Shown here in pieces: positions 3 through 52,908 of a DNA stretch of 64,000 nucleotides. The notes beneath the pieces are model-generated. The model saw only the letters and a program-made list of their open reading frames with translations. It had not been told where the DNA came from and did no database searches. A program made the translations under genes and the position numbers. How positions within the stretch are numbered: the stretch's first letter is position 1; every line of letters starts with the position of its first letter. This stretch comes from Oceanispirochaeta sp. (GTDB taxonomy: Bacteria > Spirochaetota > Spirochaetia > DSM-2461): positions 96,001-160,000 of the forward strand of contig CAXXOA010000001.1 of NCBI GenBank assembly GCA_963666275.2, given 5' to 3'.

Positions 3-995
3 GAGGAAACCTGGTTCGACGCCGGCTCTCCGGGGCTGTCTCTGCTTGTAAATCCCTATTTTCTGGAACAGGCAAAGCACTCCCGGCCTCTCAGGTCCCA
101 GTGTATTCCTACAGGGAATGAGCTGAAAAAGGCGGAAGGGGAGAGCCCCGATCCTCTGACCGAAGCGCCCTATTCCCCTGTTCCCCGGATGATTCACCGC
201 TATCCCAACCGGGTGGCCGTTCTGACTACCGACCAGTGCGCCATGCACTGCCGGCACTGTTTCCGGCGGAGTTTTACAGGCAAAGGGAATCCTCCGCTGA
301 AAGAGGCGGAGCTGAAACCCATGGGGGATTACATTACCGCCCATCCTGAAATCCGGGAGATTCTCCTGACAGGAGGGGATCCTCTGACAATGGAGACCGG
401 GCTTCTTCTGAGGATGATCAGGCAGTTCCGGGAACTGTCCGACTCCCTGGTGATCCGCCTGGCCACAAGGACTCCCTCTGTTCTGCCCGGAAGGATCGAT
501 TCCGAGCTCGCCCGGGGACTGGCCGGATGCGGGCCTCTGTGGGTCATCACCCAGTTCAATCATCCCGACGAACTGACACAGGAAAGCCGGCAGGCTCTGA
601 AACATCTCCGGGAAGCGGGACTCCCTCTGCTGAGTCAGACTGTCCTTTTGAAAGGCATCAATGATGATGCGGAGGTCCTGGGTGAACTTTTTCAGATGCT
701 GCTTGTGGAAGGGGTGAAGCCCTACTACCTTTTTCAGGGAGATCTGGCGGAAGGCACCTCCCATTTCAGAACGTCCCTGGAAAAGGGATGGGAGATTATG
801 GCCCGGTTGAGACAGACCATTTCCGGGCTGGCCATGCCGGTTTACGCCGTGGATCTGCCCGGGGGGGGAGGGAAGATCCCCCTGAGTGAATCTCTTCTGG
901 TGGAAAAAAATGCTTCCGGTTATGTCTTCAGGAATCCCGCGGGAGATCTGTATACCTATCCCGATGAAAGGAGTGATGTGAATGAACGGAACTGA
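3..995 (+). CDS. KamA/EpmB-family radical SAM protein (lysine 2,3-aminomutase-like), 5'-truncated by the window edge
   Basis: CxxxCxxC motif (CAMHCRHC), plus HRYP, LTGGDPL, FNHP, QTVLLKGIND, PYYL and PGGGGKIP family motifs. The frame is open from base 3, so the true start lies upstream of the window. Confidence 0.85.
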   Translation, partial: EETWFDAGSPGLSLLVNPYFLEQAKHSRPLRSQCIPTGNELKKAEGESPDPLTEAPYSPVPRMIHRYPNRVAVLTTDQCAMHCRHCFRRSFTGKGNPPLKEAELKPMGDYITAHPEIREILLTGGDPLTMETGLLLRMIRQFRELSDSLVIRLATRTPSVLPGRIDSELARGLAGCGPLWVITQFNHPDELTQESRQALKHLREAGLPLLSQTVLLKGINDDAEVLGELFQMLLVEGVKPYYLFQGDLAEGTSHFRTSLEKGWEIMARLRQTISGLAMPVYAVDLPGGGGKIPLSESLLVEKNASGYVFRNPAGDLYTYPDERSDVNERN

Positions 996-1554
996 TGAGA
1001 ATAAAGCCCTTGTCTGGAAAGAAACAGGAAAAAAAAGGGTTGTCTATAAAGGACCTATCTTTGAAATAGATCAGGTGGAGAGAGTCTCCCCCGAAGGGAA
1101 TTCCTATCCTTTTGTGATCTGCCGGACTCCCGACTGGGTGACAGTCATACCCGAACTCCCCGGGGCAGAGGATTTCCTCATGGTCCGGCAGTTCCGACAT
1201 GGATCGGGGGAGCTCACAATGGAGTTTCCTGCCGGTGTGGTTGATCCGGGGGAGGAGCCTTTAACCGCTGCCATAAGGGAACTCCGGGAAGAAACGGGAT
1301 ATGAGGCAGAGCAAATGATCCTGATCGGCAAAATCAATCCCAACCCGGCCTTTATGAGCAATACCTCCTGGACTTACCTGGCCCGGGGACTGAAGAAAAC
1401 CTCCGTCCTGGATCTGGACGACTCCGAATTTATCCAGGGAAAAACCGTTGACAAGACCACTGTGGACCGGGAGATGGGACGGGGTGAGTATGACAGTGCC
1501 ATTATGGTCCAGGCCTGGTTCTGGTACGGGAAGTTTACTGAACAGGAGAGCTGA
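982..1554 (+). CDS. NUDIX hydrolase (ADP-ribose pyrophosphatase-like)
   Basis: Nudix box EFPAGVVDPGEEPLTAAIRELREETGY; RBS aggag upstream. Confidence 0.9.
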   Translation: MNGTDENKALVWKETGKKRVVYKGPIFEIDQVERVSPEGNSYPFVICRTPDWVTVIPELPGAEDFLMVRQFRHGSGELTMEFPAGVVDPGEEPLTAAIRELREETGYEAEQMILIGKINPNPAFMSNTSWTYLARGLKKTSVLDLDDSEFIQGKTVDKTTVDREMGRGEYDSAIMVQAWFWYGKFTEQES

Positions 1555-49464: not shown

Positions 49465-50667
49465 ATGAAAAAAATACGTGTTATTACAGTTTGTCTTTTC
49501 TTTCTCTCTTTTGCCCTGAATGCGGAAGTCCTGCGGGAACTTCAGGTGGAGGGACTGAATAAAACCAGGATCTCTACTGTGAAGGGGATCATCGGTTATG
49601 ATATCGGGGACCAGATCGATAAGGCCGGGAAAGAGGATATCCGGCAGAATCTCCTGAAGTCGGGACTCTTTATAAATGAAACAATTAAGGTGGATCTTAC
49701 AACAAGCGGTGACGATGCCTATCTGAGAATATCTCTTCATGACAGGATCACCCTTCTGCCCATTCCCATAGCCAGTGTGAGCGACGGCAGCTACAGCGGA
49801 GGCCTTTTTGTCATGGACAGGAATTTTCTGGGGCTGGGGCATCAGCTGTTTGCCGGGGGGATGATCAGTTCGGATGACAGAATGTTTATGCTGGGCTACA
49901 CAAATCCCTCGCTGAAAAGGAGTGCTTTTCAGGCGGGAGGCAGTATGAGTGCTTTTATGGCGGATGAAACAGTGACAGATATCAGCGGAAAGGATGATCT
50001 GGCCGAATATGAATACCAGACTGTGAGCGGAGGGATCTCTGCCGGCTGGGAATCCGGTTCCATACGCCTGGGGCTGCAGTCCAGGGTGTATTTTCTGGAT
50101 GTTTCTTTTTCCGATCAGGATGCTTTTGTGTTTCATCCCGAAGTATCAGCGGAATACAGCAACTTATATTATGATACCTACTTCGATAGGGGTGTGAAAG
50201 CGTCGCTCTCCTATGGGATTGACAGCTATACGGATGTATTTGATTTTACCCAGACGGCAGAGGCTCAAATCTCCTACCATCACCTGCTGCATCCGAAATG
50301 GCAGGTTCAGTTCAATGGAGATATGGCAATTTCAGAAGGAGATCCTCTTCAGTCTCTCTCCCTGGGCCAGGGCTCCTGCGGCTCCATTCTTCCTGATACT
50401 GTTCTGGCTGACCGGTTTGTACAGGGAAATCTCAAGCTGATGTATGCGGCTCTGGATTTTTCCTGGGGATACATTGCCGTTCCTATGGCCTATCAGGTGG
50501 GGATCCTGGATGGGATGAGCGGAGACAATGCGTTCTATCACGGGCCTTCAGCAGGAGTGTCTCTCTATCTGAAAAAGGTTGCGATTCCGGCTATGTCCAT
50601 TCAGTATGCTTCAAATATAGAGACAGGGAAGGGGCTTTTTTCCTTCAGTATAGGAATGGAGATGTAA
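49465..50667 (+). CDS. Outer-membrane protein with one POTRA-like domain and a beta-barrel (Omp85/BamA-like)
   Basis: Signal peptide; V.GL.KTR POTRA-like start; DRNFLGLG motif; alternating aromatic beta-strands; C-terminal FSFSIGMEM. Confidence 0.7.
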   Translation: MKKIRVITVCLFFLSFALNAEVLRELQVEGLNKTRISTVKGIIGYDIGDQIDKAGKEDIRQNLLKSGLFINETIKVDLTTSGDDAYLRISLHDRITLLPIPIASVSDGSYSGGLFVMDRNFLGLGHQLFAGGMISSDDRMFMLGYTNPSLKRSAFQAGGSMSAFMADETVTDISGKDDLAEYEYQTVSGGISAGWESGSIRLGLQSRVYFLDVSFSDQDAFVFHPEVSAEYSNLYYDTYFDRGVKASLSYGIDSYTDVFDFTQTAEAQISYHHLLHPKWQVQFNGDMAISEGDPLQSLSLGQGSCGSILPDTVLADRFVQGNLKLMYAALDFSWGYIAVPMAYQVGILDGMSGDNAFYHGPSAGVSLYLKKVAIPAMSIQYASNIETGKGLFSFSIGMEM

Positions 50668-50696
50668 TTTTCCTTTCTAGTTGTGTATGAAAAAGA

Positions 50697-51131
50697 GGTT
50701 ATAAAAGCTAAAGGGACCCTTGCGGATCCCTTTGGTTTTCTCTTTTTAGCAGGGGTAGGACTCCTGTCCAGTCATTGGATCGTGCCGATTCCTTCCCAGC
50801 CGGCTTCATAGACTAAATCGACGTCCTGTCGATTTGCGCTCCAGGTATTCGCGCCGTCTATTCCGCTTCGAGTCCTACCCCGTAAATTGGTTATAAAAGC
50901 TAAAGGGACCCTTGCGGATCCCTTTGGTTTTTTCTTTTTAGCAGGGGTAGGACTCCTGTCCAGTCATCGGCATCGTGCCGATTCCTTCCCAGCCGGCTTC
51001 ATAGACTAAATCGACGTCCTGTCGATTTGCGCTCCAGGTATTCGCGCCGTCTATTCCGCTTCGAGTCCTACCCCGTAAATTGGTTATAAAAGCTAAAGGG
51101 ACCCTTGCGGATCCCTTTGGTTTTTTCTTTT
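50697..51131 (-). repeat. Tandem tRNA-linked repeat array 1 (two ~192-193-bp units plus the tRNA trailer)
   Basis: Units begin at 50697, 50889 and 51082. Each has the terminator hairpin aaagggacccttgcggatcccttt and 17 nt of the tRNA 3' end; the two full units continue with the payload and an inverted T-arm copy. Confidence 0.95.
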
Positions 51132-51204
51132 TAGCAGGGGTAGGACTCGAACCTACGGCCTTCGGGTTATGAGCCCGACGAGCTGCCAACTGCTCCACCC
51201 TGCG
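51132..51204 (-). tRNA. Initiator tRNA-fMet (CAT), copy 1
   Basis: C1:U72 mismatch, three G-C pairs in the anticodon stem (TCGGG-CTCATAA-CCCGA), A73; own TTGACG-N17-TATATT promoter. Confidence 0.95.
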
Positions 51205-51578
51205 TCGTGTGTCACATGAATATATAGATAATAGGAATTCTCGTCAAGAGAAAGTTTGAAAAAAGTTTTTTCTGCTGATGAAAGAGAGATCTAAATGCAT
51301 ATTCAGATTAAAATTAAACAATAAAAAAAGTGCGACTCCCCTGCTTCAGGAAAGTGCACTGATTCTGTTCTGTGAAGACAGATTACTTGACTATCGTATC
51401 AACATACAGTCTGTGGAGGCATTGTTGCTTTCATCATCATTCATATCATCATTCTCTGAAAACACATGGGTGTCATAAGAAACAAGATTCCCATCTTCAA
51501 AATAATTATTTTTGCTGTTATGTGATGATGAAGAAAAACCCCGGTCCCTGAACGGAGCCGAAGGGCTCTCTGTTTTTA

Positions 51579-52072
51579 TTATAAAAAGCAAAAGGGACCC
51601 TTGCGGATCCCTTTGATTTTTTGTTTTTAGCAGGGGCTTATTTTATGGTTTCGGCAAAGGAATTGCAGACTCGCTTTTATTCGTCGGCATCGTGCCTCCT
51701 CATAAAAGCCGTCTCCGGGGTATTCGGCCATCCCTGGCCTCAGCGCTCCAGTGGAGATCGTTCCTCGGTGCCCTGCGGTACGACTCCTTTTCGCGCAAAC
51801 CCCTCCGCTTCGAGTCCTACCCCTGGGGTTGGTTCTAAAAGCAAAAGGGACCCTTGCGGATCCCTTTGTTTTTTTGTTTTTAGCAGGGGTAGGACTCCTG
51901 TCCAGTCATCGGCATCGTGCCGATTCCTTCCCAGCCGGCTTGATAGACTAAATCGACGTCCTGTCGATTTGCGCTCCAGGTATTCGCGCCGTCTATTCCG
52001 CTTCGAGTCCTACCCCGTAAATTGGTTATAAAAGCAAAAGGGACCCTTGCGGATCCCTTTGTTTTTTGTTTT
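51579..52072 (-). repeat. Tandem tRNA-linked repeat array 2 (one divergent ~250-bp unit, one standard 193-bp unit, trailer)
   Basis: Units begin at ~51579, 51831 and 52024. Confidence 0.93.
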
Positions 52073-52145
52073 TAGCAGGGGTAGGACTCGAACCTACGGC
52101 CTTCGGGTTATGAGCCCGACGAGCTGCCAACTGCTCCACCCTGCG
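52073..52145 (-). tRNA. Initiator tRNA-fMet (CAT), copy 2
   Basis: Identical to copy 1; own TTGACT-N17-TACCCT promoter-like sequence. Confidence 0.95.
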
Positions 52146-52206
52146 TCGTGTCTGGAGAGGGTATAGGTTTCGGCATTTTTAGTCAAGGGTTCTGAGTTTT
52201 TTCTTT

Positions 52207-52908
52207 TCAGGACCGGAAAAACCGGTGGTCTTCGTCGATCGCTCCCTGCAGTACTTTTTTGGCATGAAAAAAGAGCACCACAAGGAGGGGGAGGCTCAGC
52301 CAGGCAAGGGGGCCGCCATAAAAGAGAAAGAAATCATACAGTCCATGGTAAAGAACCGCCAGAAAGAGCCCCAGAGGGATGAGGGGAAGATTATCCATTT
52401 TGGCTTTGCCTATGTAATATCCCATCAGGCCGGAAGTCAGGCCGTGAAGAGGCACGGCGGTAACCCCTCTTGTGAGAAGCACGGCAATGGAGTTGTAACT
52501 GTTCATGCTGTATATGATATTTTCCAGAAAGGCAAATCCCAGACCTGCTGCCATGGTGTATATGATTCCGTCGGTCACCTCATCGAACTCCGGATGAGGG
52601 TAGATATACCTTTTGACGACAAAGAGTTTACAGCTCTCTTCCACAAGGCCGGCTACAATAAAGGCCCGGAAGGCAATGAGCATTAGGGGAGACAGGCCGT
52701 AAGGGGTCATCCTGCCCAGCATCAGTTCAATGATGATAGCCGGTATGGTGGAGAGGATCCCCAGGAAGAATGCTTTCATGACGATGCGTCCGGGTTCCGG
52801 CCGGGGATCTCTTTTATAGAAATAGTTCAGAAGCAGGAGCGCAGGAATCAGAGCGAGGAGGAAACTGATTACCTGCGGGAGCAGGAGCAGGTAAAGGAGA
52901 AAAGTCAT
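52207..52908 (-). CDS. PrsW-family intramembrane glutamic protease
   Basis: D..PEP, AGLVEE..K, GLGFAFLEN, R.VTAVPLH and HGLYD motifs. Confidence 0.9.
   Translation of the reverse strand: MTFLLYLLLLPQVISFLLALIPALLLLNYFYKRDPRPEPGRIVMKAFFLGILSTIPAIIIELMLGRMTPYGLSPLMLIAFRAFIVAGLVEESCKLFVVKRYIYPHPEFDEVTDGIIYTMAAGLGFAFLENIIYSMNSYNSIAVLLTRGVTAVPLHGLTSGLMGYYIGKAKMDNLPLIPLGLFLAVLYHGLYDFFLFYGGPLAWLSLPLLVVLFFHAKKVLQGAIDEDHRFFRS

Follow-up and report, generated by a model that had tools for sequence, protein, structure and literature searches.

What are the tandem repeats that trail two identical tRNA genes in Oceanispirochaeta sp. (GCA_963666275.2), and how did they come to lie there? The locus occupies positions 50697..52145 of a 64,000-nt stretch of contig CAXXOA010000001.1, which was analysed as a whole and is called the window below. 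Each of the two 73-nt tRNA-Met(CAT) genes (52073-52145 and 51132-51204, minus strand), which we take to be initiator tRNAs (tRNA-fMet) since their first pair is mismatched and their anticodon stem contains three G:C pairs, is followed by two repeat units, as a first-pass annotation of the sequence had described. We propose, with moderate confidence, that the units are copies of a protein-less mobile cassette of ~190 bp that enters the T-loop of tRNA genes immediately ahead of position 56/57, probably in the form of a folded single strand and with a borrowed enzyme. That they are a mobile cassette we consider strongly probable; given this, a folded single-stranded DNA (ssDNA) route seems somewhat likely.

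The tRNA-fMet arrays and the payload fold

Each unit comprises an inverted 15-17-nt copy of the host tRNA (positions 54-68/70), a payload and a direct copy of 17 nt (57-73), along with a terminator-like hairpin, of which there are six across both arrays; Tandem Repeats Finder gives a period of 193 (2.3 copies, 50697-51148). The uniform unit of the first-pass annotation holds for three near-identical copies, A1, A2 and A3, which are 192-193 bp long with payloads of 103-104 nt (5 differing positions between A1 and A2, 2 between A2 and A3), and fails for the second unit behind gene 1 (B), a variant of 253 bp whose payload differs and whose direct copy is broken. The parts of the unit had been named correctly, in a phase that we would shift: the cassette probably starts at the T-loop and includes the terminator, the insertion unit then being tRNA 56/57-73, trailer, inverted copy and payload. 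From the tRNA-fMet gene 1 end, the features are:

52073..52145, minus strand: tRNA-fMet gene 1, the target gene; the copy proposed to be brought by the cassette to restore it covers positions 56/57-73
52037..52060, minus strand: terminator-like hairpin, trailer of unit A1
52002..52016, minus strand: inverted copy of tRNA 54-68 (A1); the family keeps its last 5 nt (TYGAA) almost unchanged
51898..52001, minus strand: payload A1, 104 nt, with two three-way junctions
51881..51897, minus strand: direct copy of tRNA 57-73 (A1)
51844..51867, minus strand: terminator-like hairpin, trailer of unit B
51809..51825, minus strand: inverted copy of tRNA 54-70 (B)
51674..51808, minus strand: payload B, longer, with an extra hairpin module in the first loop (43 and 55 bits)
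51628..51673, minus strand: damaged outermost direct copy, consisting of positions 56-61, ~30 nt of other sequence, then 65-73
51591..51614, minus strand: terminator-like hairpin closing array 1
51219..51247, minus strand: candidate sigma-70-like promoter of tRNA-fMet gene 2 (10/12 matches, a consensus match only)
51132..51204, minus strand: tRNA-fMet gene 2
51095..51118, minus strand: terminator-like hairpin, trailer of unit A2
51060..51074, minus strand: inverted copy of tRNA 54-68 (A2)
50956..51059, minus strand: payload A2
50939..50955, minus strand: direct copy of tRNA 57-73 (A2)
50902..50925, minus strand: terminator-like hairpin, trailer of unit A3
50867..50881, minus strand: inverted copy of tRNA 54-68 (A3)
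50764..50866, minus strand: payload A3, with one deletion and one substitution in the last hairpin relative to A2
50747..50763, minus strand: outermost direct copy of tRNA 57-73 (A3)
50710..50733, minus strand: terminator-like hairpin at the end of array 2, directly ahead of the stop of a convergent Omp85-like gene

The predicted fold of the unit is closed by the 12-bp stem that had been postulated between the two tRNA-derived pieces, with z-scores of -6.5 as RNA and -6.4 as DNA, and none of 200 shuffled sequences folded as well. It has two three-way junctions and two hairpins whose loops read CA(N)SGAYG; its internal loops are rich in purines and closed by G-A pairs. The fold is strand-specific. 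Across 117 distinct sequences, pairing is kept in 89.3% of cells, compared with 62.8% in shuffled and 23-41% in slid controls, and two-sided changes occur at 32/32 pairs; the alignment was fitted to an earlier version of the same structure, and these covariation figures therefore lean towards it. The element is real and under selection for structure. In an Rfam scan of window positions 50400-52400, tRNA alone passed the gathering threshold and no family matched the payload, the outcome of the Rfam search that the first-pass annotation had suggested. The spirochaete family appears to be uncatalogued.

Because the copies differ from each other, the arrays are very unlikely to be an assembly artefact. 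In X1 and X2, possibly the source sample, the unique junctions are spanned by Logan contigs, and payload depth in X1 is about twice that of the flanks (25.8 vs 11.6-14.1). Variant units also follow this tRNA in runs X3 and X4, which come from two other studies. Matches to PF00589 (integrase), PF01797 (Y1 transposase), PF01541 (GIY-YIG) and PF00078 (reverse transcriptase, RT) were absent from the 64-kb window, in agreement with the earlier remark that no integrase or transposase lies nearby, and the six neighbouring proteins that were scanned are an Omp85-like protein, PrsW, a class I/II aminotransferase, a methyl-accepting chemotaxis protein, a histidine kinase and BirA.

Two other small repeats occur at the locus. 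The extra hairpin module of payload B (51759-51785) has six more copies in this genome, in either orientation, which sit in apparent rRNA operon leaders and a spacer; the module is also found inside payloads of other species (L213, L126, L132). A palindrome resembling repetitive extragenic palindromic (REP) sequences at 51540-51565 has 24 pattern matches genome-wide, and related palindromes flank a 127-aa GIY-YIG gene at G000:C1:1676797.

A family of units behind tRNA genes

To follow the payload beyond the window, two covariance models of it, R1 and R2, were used; loci were read around listed, mostly stronger R1 matches, a subset of 208. In the source genome, related payloads lie behind tRNA-Gly(CCC), tRNA-Gly(GCC), a second tRNA-Met, tRNA-Asp (two different payloads), tRNA-Leu(CAG) and the transfer-messenger RNA (tmRNA) gene, each framed by copies of its own host gene. 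All 12 profile matches, which are mostly the seed itself, and all 12 covariance-model matches in that genome are located behind tRNA or tmRNA genes. R1 matched 37/61 genomes including the source and 9/141 across the phylum, and R2 matched 41/60 Spirochaetota relatives, with copy numbers from 0 to more than 20 among relatives. Altogether the element was seen at more than 20 tRNA types and at tmRNA.

A payload pattern run against a genome collection returned 35 matches, 33 of them titled as spirochaetes; the genomes of the other two held no model match. R2 scored 0/151 genomes in the class of G200 and 0/151 in the phylum of G201, with 25 candidates scored per genome and no positive control, so these zeros mean that the element was not found in the genomes searched. 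The match at L138 is a chance match in coding sequence. With one payload as query, blastn (E up to 1) gave no match in phage and plasmid collections, and none of the 22 loci from four viral pattern scans had a model match.

The first-pass annotation had asked whether the payload occurs independently of tRNAs, and among the loci read there was a single clear exception. R1 gave 128 matches over 96 sources, of which 8 belong to a miniature inverted-repeat transposable element (MITE) of G024, taken up below. For 113 of the other 120 a T-arm lies at most 1300 nt upstream, and the last 7 sit at the end of a contig or follow a displaced tRNA tail; all 18 distant matches that were read stand behind a tRNA or tmRNA gene. 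A metagenome scan produced 115 stretches, 80 of them listed, in which R2 found 74 matches. Among the 22 metagenome loci without sign of a tRNA, 17 have no model match and four of the other five carry tRNA tails, the fifth being L297.

Several short sequences accompany the family. A second small element of ~60-70 nt sits exactly in payload hairpin loops with a 3-bp ATG duplication, at metagenome loci L277, L286, L293, L310 and L320, as a parasite of the cassette. Short inserts unlike the payload model lie between the tRNA gene and a direct 3' copy at L150 (~1330-1400) and L126 (~1640-1740). At G000:C1:1764491-1764565, ARAGORN calls a 75-nt tRNA-Leu(GAG) whose trailer is odd and which is followed, 103 nt downstream, by a partial copy of the T-arm; this gene may be another RNA or a pseudogene.

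The ends of the units match their host genes. We analysed 101 of the 113 units, after dropping duplicates and units without a GAA start, and located the direct copy in 73; from the metagenomes, 55 of the 74 matches were used (44 with a direct copy), all of one subtype chosen by pattern. The flanks do follow the local tRNA, as the earlier annotation had proposed checking: the inverted copy equals it at positions 57, 59 and 63 in 97, 96 and 87% of units (47, 52 and 33% for other tRNAs), and in 98, 98 and 95% of the metagenome units (53, 23 and 44%), and it bears the local rather than an alternative tRNA allele in 105/133 cases. This likeness fades past position 65. At 54 positions within 57-65 where the downstream direct copy differs from the gene, the inverted copy tracks the gene at 43, the direct copy at 7 and neither at 4, and it is therefore the match to the gene, not the closing stem, that is best preserved. 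The payload-side end of the inverted copy, TYGAA, is 96-99% conserved and complementary to TTCRA.

The boundary of the unit on the tRNA side is likewise fixed. The direct copy starts at position 56 in 38/73 units and at 57 in 20/73, and agrees with the gene at T54 in 3% and at T55 in 5% of them. In the metagenome direct copies, the match is 95% at position 56 and 0% at 52-55. Cores of P4-type attachment (att) sites also begin near position 57.

Comparison among relatives points to movement. The 26 tRNA-fMet genes of 13 relatives comprise 10 that are filled, 3 with the inverted copy only and 13 that are empty; at the G004 tRNA-fMet locus, a near-copy of the window's terminator and an inverted copy stand without a payload. 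Direct copies are damaged or lost in 46/90 terminal units and in 4/38 internal ones, which places the damage at the outermost target copy. Trailers behind Leu(GAG) recur in G001, G002 and G007 in a different order. Nearest neighbours of a payload belong to the same tRNA type across genomes in 27 cases (5.6 expected) and to the same genome across types in 18 (7.4 expected), and on a poorly resolved payload tree there are 55 changes of tRNA type, with a minimum of 21 and a shuffled mean of 72. The local amplification first suspected is thus not the whole story, given that trailers are common to several species and that the payload has changed to another tRNA type on many occasions. The fixed boundary, the ends tailored at more than 20 tRNA types plus tmRNA, the filled, scarred and empty orthologues, and the damage at the outermost target copy together support the suggestion of a non-autonomous mobile element that targets tRNA genes.

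One array departs from the usual plan: at L207 (G016, ~600-1200, minus strand), four payloads behind tRNA-Met have no terminators between them, and one linker is a perfect palindrome made of the direct core, a 2-nt loop and the inverted copy, which differs from the host tRNA past position 62.

Possible routes of movement and rival explanations

How might such a cassette travel? Insertion in the T-loop just before position 56/57 would leave the host gene restored by the cassette's own 3' copy and push the old tRNA 3' end outward each time, and through this displacement an array would lengthen at its tRNA end. If the intermediate is a circular single strand, the inverted copy could pair with the cassette's own tRNA copy and rebuild a duplex half-site, its invariant 5' TYGAA reading the conserved TTCRA of any T-loop. 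Retargeting would re-template the inverted copy on the new gene, and the terminator present in most units may keep the antisense stretch out of the pre-tRNA. The composition of the fold bears on the form in which it acts. Payload stems hold 90 G-U and 54 A-C per 3056 Watson-Crick cells, compared with 37 and 2 per 535 in the tRNA stems of the genome, and, when folded by the same method, the G-U share is 3.6% in payloads and 10.6% in terminators. Tandem G-A pairs stand in for Watson-Crick pairs within helices. Scarce G-U pairs combined with tandem G-A pairs lean towards ssDNA.

A number of observations weigh against the folded-cassette explanation. The cell counts behind the G-U and A-C figures are not independent, and RNA and ssDNA motifs are hard to distinguish, low G-U being no reliable separator (PMC5737381). 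The 56/57 start does not match a 7-bp T-loop crossover. Among first units, 31/109 have a trailer without a T-run, and in 37/109 the first trailer resembles the next; both features fit local copying, possibly via RNA, as well as they fit an arriving cassette. The highest payload identity between different tRNA types is 84%; no near-identical payload was found at two types, and no fresh retargeting event was seen. No circle or excision was observed, and no gene-bearing form of the element occurs in the loci read. Finally, the G024 MITE carries a payload homologue away from tRNAs.

That MITE (L041-L048, L195-L200) has 15-bp terminal inverted repeats, with 237 end matches in one 3-Mb genome, and comes in forms of ~160 bp and ~285 bp, the longer of which bears the homologue (55 bits), with a small fold-back hairpin resembling a T-loop beside it. 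An autonomous insertion sequence (IS) partner was absent from the 20 stretches read.

Nor did any of the enzyme families examined yield an enzyme for the element, which tells against the same explanation. The co-occurring HUH protein that the first-pass annotation had proposed to look for did not materialize: PF01797 (Y1/HUH) is found in 6/36 genomes of the family, 32/36 of which have model matches, and it is absent from G001, G005, G007, G017 and G028. The eight Y1 and GIY-YIG flanks that were read in the source genome contain no payload. An integron integrase occurs in 23/38 element-positive and 7/22 other genomes, counts in which kin are not independent, and is missing from G028 with its 22 element matches; the IntI of the source genome is located elsewhere, not beside units. 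In G028, an IS1182-like DDE transposase of 521 aa (DUF772 and DDE domains) lies directly before units at two tRNA loci (L101 2694-4259, L104 4269-5834); it is situated in trailer hairpins and looks like a later insertion.

Other enzyme genes of G000 were noted in passing. Its seven PF01797 loci (e.g., C2:585130, C1:510108) match RAYT-like Y1 transposases, with a GGGACGGAGG motif at most 260 nt upstream at six of the seven. At G000:C1:1038709-1064701, an integron integrase (TIGR02249) has as its neighbours clustered RT genes in multiple copies, which probably represent group II introns within a cassette array.

An unlikely alternative is that the units move through RNA, with a read-through or processed transcript pairing with the T-arm and an RT acting in trans to copy the payload, the local tRNA 3' end and the terminator into the chromosome. 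The like trailers would follow naturally from such copying, 13 of the 37 having no further inverted copy, as would the units in tRNA operons that, like their surroundings, have no terminator (L243, for example; cf. the first units without a T-run), the allele of the gene in the inverted copy and the fold-back linkers at L207. The source genome, in which the GIY-YIG and RT families were checked, also has 12 RT matches; these are multi-copy genes of ~450 aa, several next to the integron integrase, and probably belong to group II introns. Some duplications extend ~8-13 nt past the U-tract (L018, L062, L093; judged by eye), that is, beyond a terminated transcript, and the trailers shared by several species in differing order, together with the scarcity of G-U pairs in payload stems, also disfavour an RNA intermediate.

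We regard as equally improbable that the payload is a functional RNA, either RtT-like and derived from the pre-tRNA or a sponge for CsrA, which is kept by selection and spread by ordinary host recombination. A precedent is E. coli rttR, annotated as a 171-nt RNA of the same architecture that ends at the direct tRNA copy, and the fold is strand-specific. For a CsrA sponge, GGA is found in 86/101 first loops, mostly as CA(N)GGAYG, payloads average 5.9 GGA and 0.8 TCC, csrA is present in the source genome, and the first-loop motif resembles the SELEX consensus of CsrA, which has a 100% conserved GGA in short-stemmed hairpins (PMC7652899). The second loop has GGA in 48/101 units and is of a CACGA type without GGA in 38/101. 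The csrA gene was detected in 57/68 genomes and not in four element-positive ones (including G012, 95% complete), so its co-occurrence does not discriminate. There is no sigma-70-like promoter site in the units, and an internal TATAA is not enriched (28/101 vs 5/27). The inverted copy follows the gene over the direct copy, and copy number varies widely among relatives. The tRNA-mimic non-coding RNA offered by the first-pass annotation loses ground on similar counts: the closing stem usually ends at position 63-65, and the acceptor stem is consequently not rebuilt. What remains in its favour is the annotation of RttR as an RNA.

A third alternative, very improbable and largely refuted by the covariation, would make the units passive duplications, an assembly artefact or the decayed att scars left by integrase islands. 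In its favour, such islands use the same 3' ends of tRNA genes, where direct fragments are left behind (PMC4383910), and islands alternate with units at L103, L211 and L305/L306. Against it, the copies differ among themselves, variants recur in two other studies, and the Islander signature has no inverted copy and rejects inverted fragments.

Relation to known systems and meaning

The closest counterpart of the proposed cassette is the E. coli tyrT repeat, or RtT (RF00391, rttR). The first-pass annotation had cited it as a precedent for repeats that include a tRNA 3' end; the likeness goes further, with an inverted copy there too. Both consist of tandem units behind a tRNA gene, in which the T-arm/acceptor strand is copied in inverted form, the payload is branched and a direct copy is present: in the 178-bp tyrT repeat, the inverted copy measures 10 bp, the payload 91 nt, and the direct copy runs from the T-loop (A58) to the 3' end, and Rfam draws RtT with a three-way junction and a closing stem formed by both tRNA copies. 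By eye, a GAGCGA-AGCGAG loop and a GAGAA start are shared by RtT and some spirochaete variants. The spirochaete payload differs in its second junction, its CA(N)SGAYG loops, the terminator that usually belongs to each unit, and its presence at more than 20 tRNA types and tmRNA. The RtT model gave no match in the window (E up to 10) or at nine variant loci (E up to 1), and the spirochaete model reached at most 5.3 bits on the tyrT region; as neither model detects the other, we do not file the element under RF00391. RtT is described as an RNA whose mode of action is unknown (10.1101/2024.07.17.603846), and not as a mobile cassette. Our literature search found no account of this architecture as a mobile cassette; the older tyrT papers, as well as Williams 2002/2003 and Bosl and Kersten 1991, all of which lay outside that search, may already note the inverted copy.

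Other systems share parts of the design. Islands in tRNA genes catalogued by Islander (PMC4383910) likewise restore the gene, displace its 3' fragment, form tandem arrays, leave damaged fragments and use a T-arm subsite; they span 2-200 kb and encode a tyrosine integrase, whereas the units are 192-253 bp long and integrase-less, with no arm-type sites seen and with an inverted copy and a conserved fold instead. Integron cassettes are similar as gene-less or small units in arrays, their single-strand fold (attC) being closed by a core together with its inverse core, and with the newest unit inferred to lie beside a fixed site. The spirochaete units, in contrast, lack a GTTRRRY/RYYYAAC boundary (the direct copy is without T54-T55), fold into a branched structure and target a tRNA gene, and IntI is not adjacent to the element and does not clearly track it.

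The IS200/IS605 family and REP sequences with their bacterial interspersed mosaic elements (BIMEs) have single-strand hairpins, in which sequence at the hairpin foot is complementary to bases 5' of the insertion point. Pairing of TYGAA with TTCRA would be loosely like the guide of IS608 (PMC5934647); engineered IS608 pairs upstream, while the extended complementarity of the unit is 3' of the cut. The fold may also bear a likeness to the single-strand origins of plasmids and to sites of primosome assembly. The unit further differs in carrying and restoring a copy of its target, and Y1 genes are absent from most carriers. RNAs of the CsrB/RsmZ type have GGA hairpin loops of the same CA(N)GGAYG kind; the unit, by comparison, has just two such loops, one often without GGA, on long stable stems, and combines tRNA-matched ends with no promoter found inside.

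Decades after their discovery, the tyrT/RtT repeats have still not been given a mode of action. The spirochaete family repeats their layout at more than 20 tRNA types and supplies a covariance model and a defined boundary along with filled, scarred and empty alleles, so that the RtT question becomes testable, both in a laboratory strain and by comparison. As a tentative extension, both could represent self-retargeting cassettes whose folded strand base-pairs with the universal T-loop, inserts harmlessly and has its targeting end rewritten, RtT having spread via the same enzyme system. The elements also create tRNA fragments that confuse island and att-site calls. If the units are indeed a mobile cassette, they would point to a site-specific recombination system that targets tRNA genes by base-pairing, which would matter for genome evolution and might be useful as a safe-harbour integration tool.

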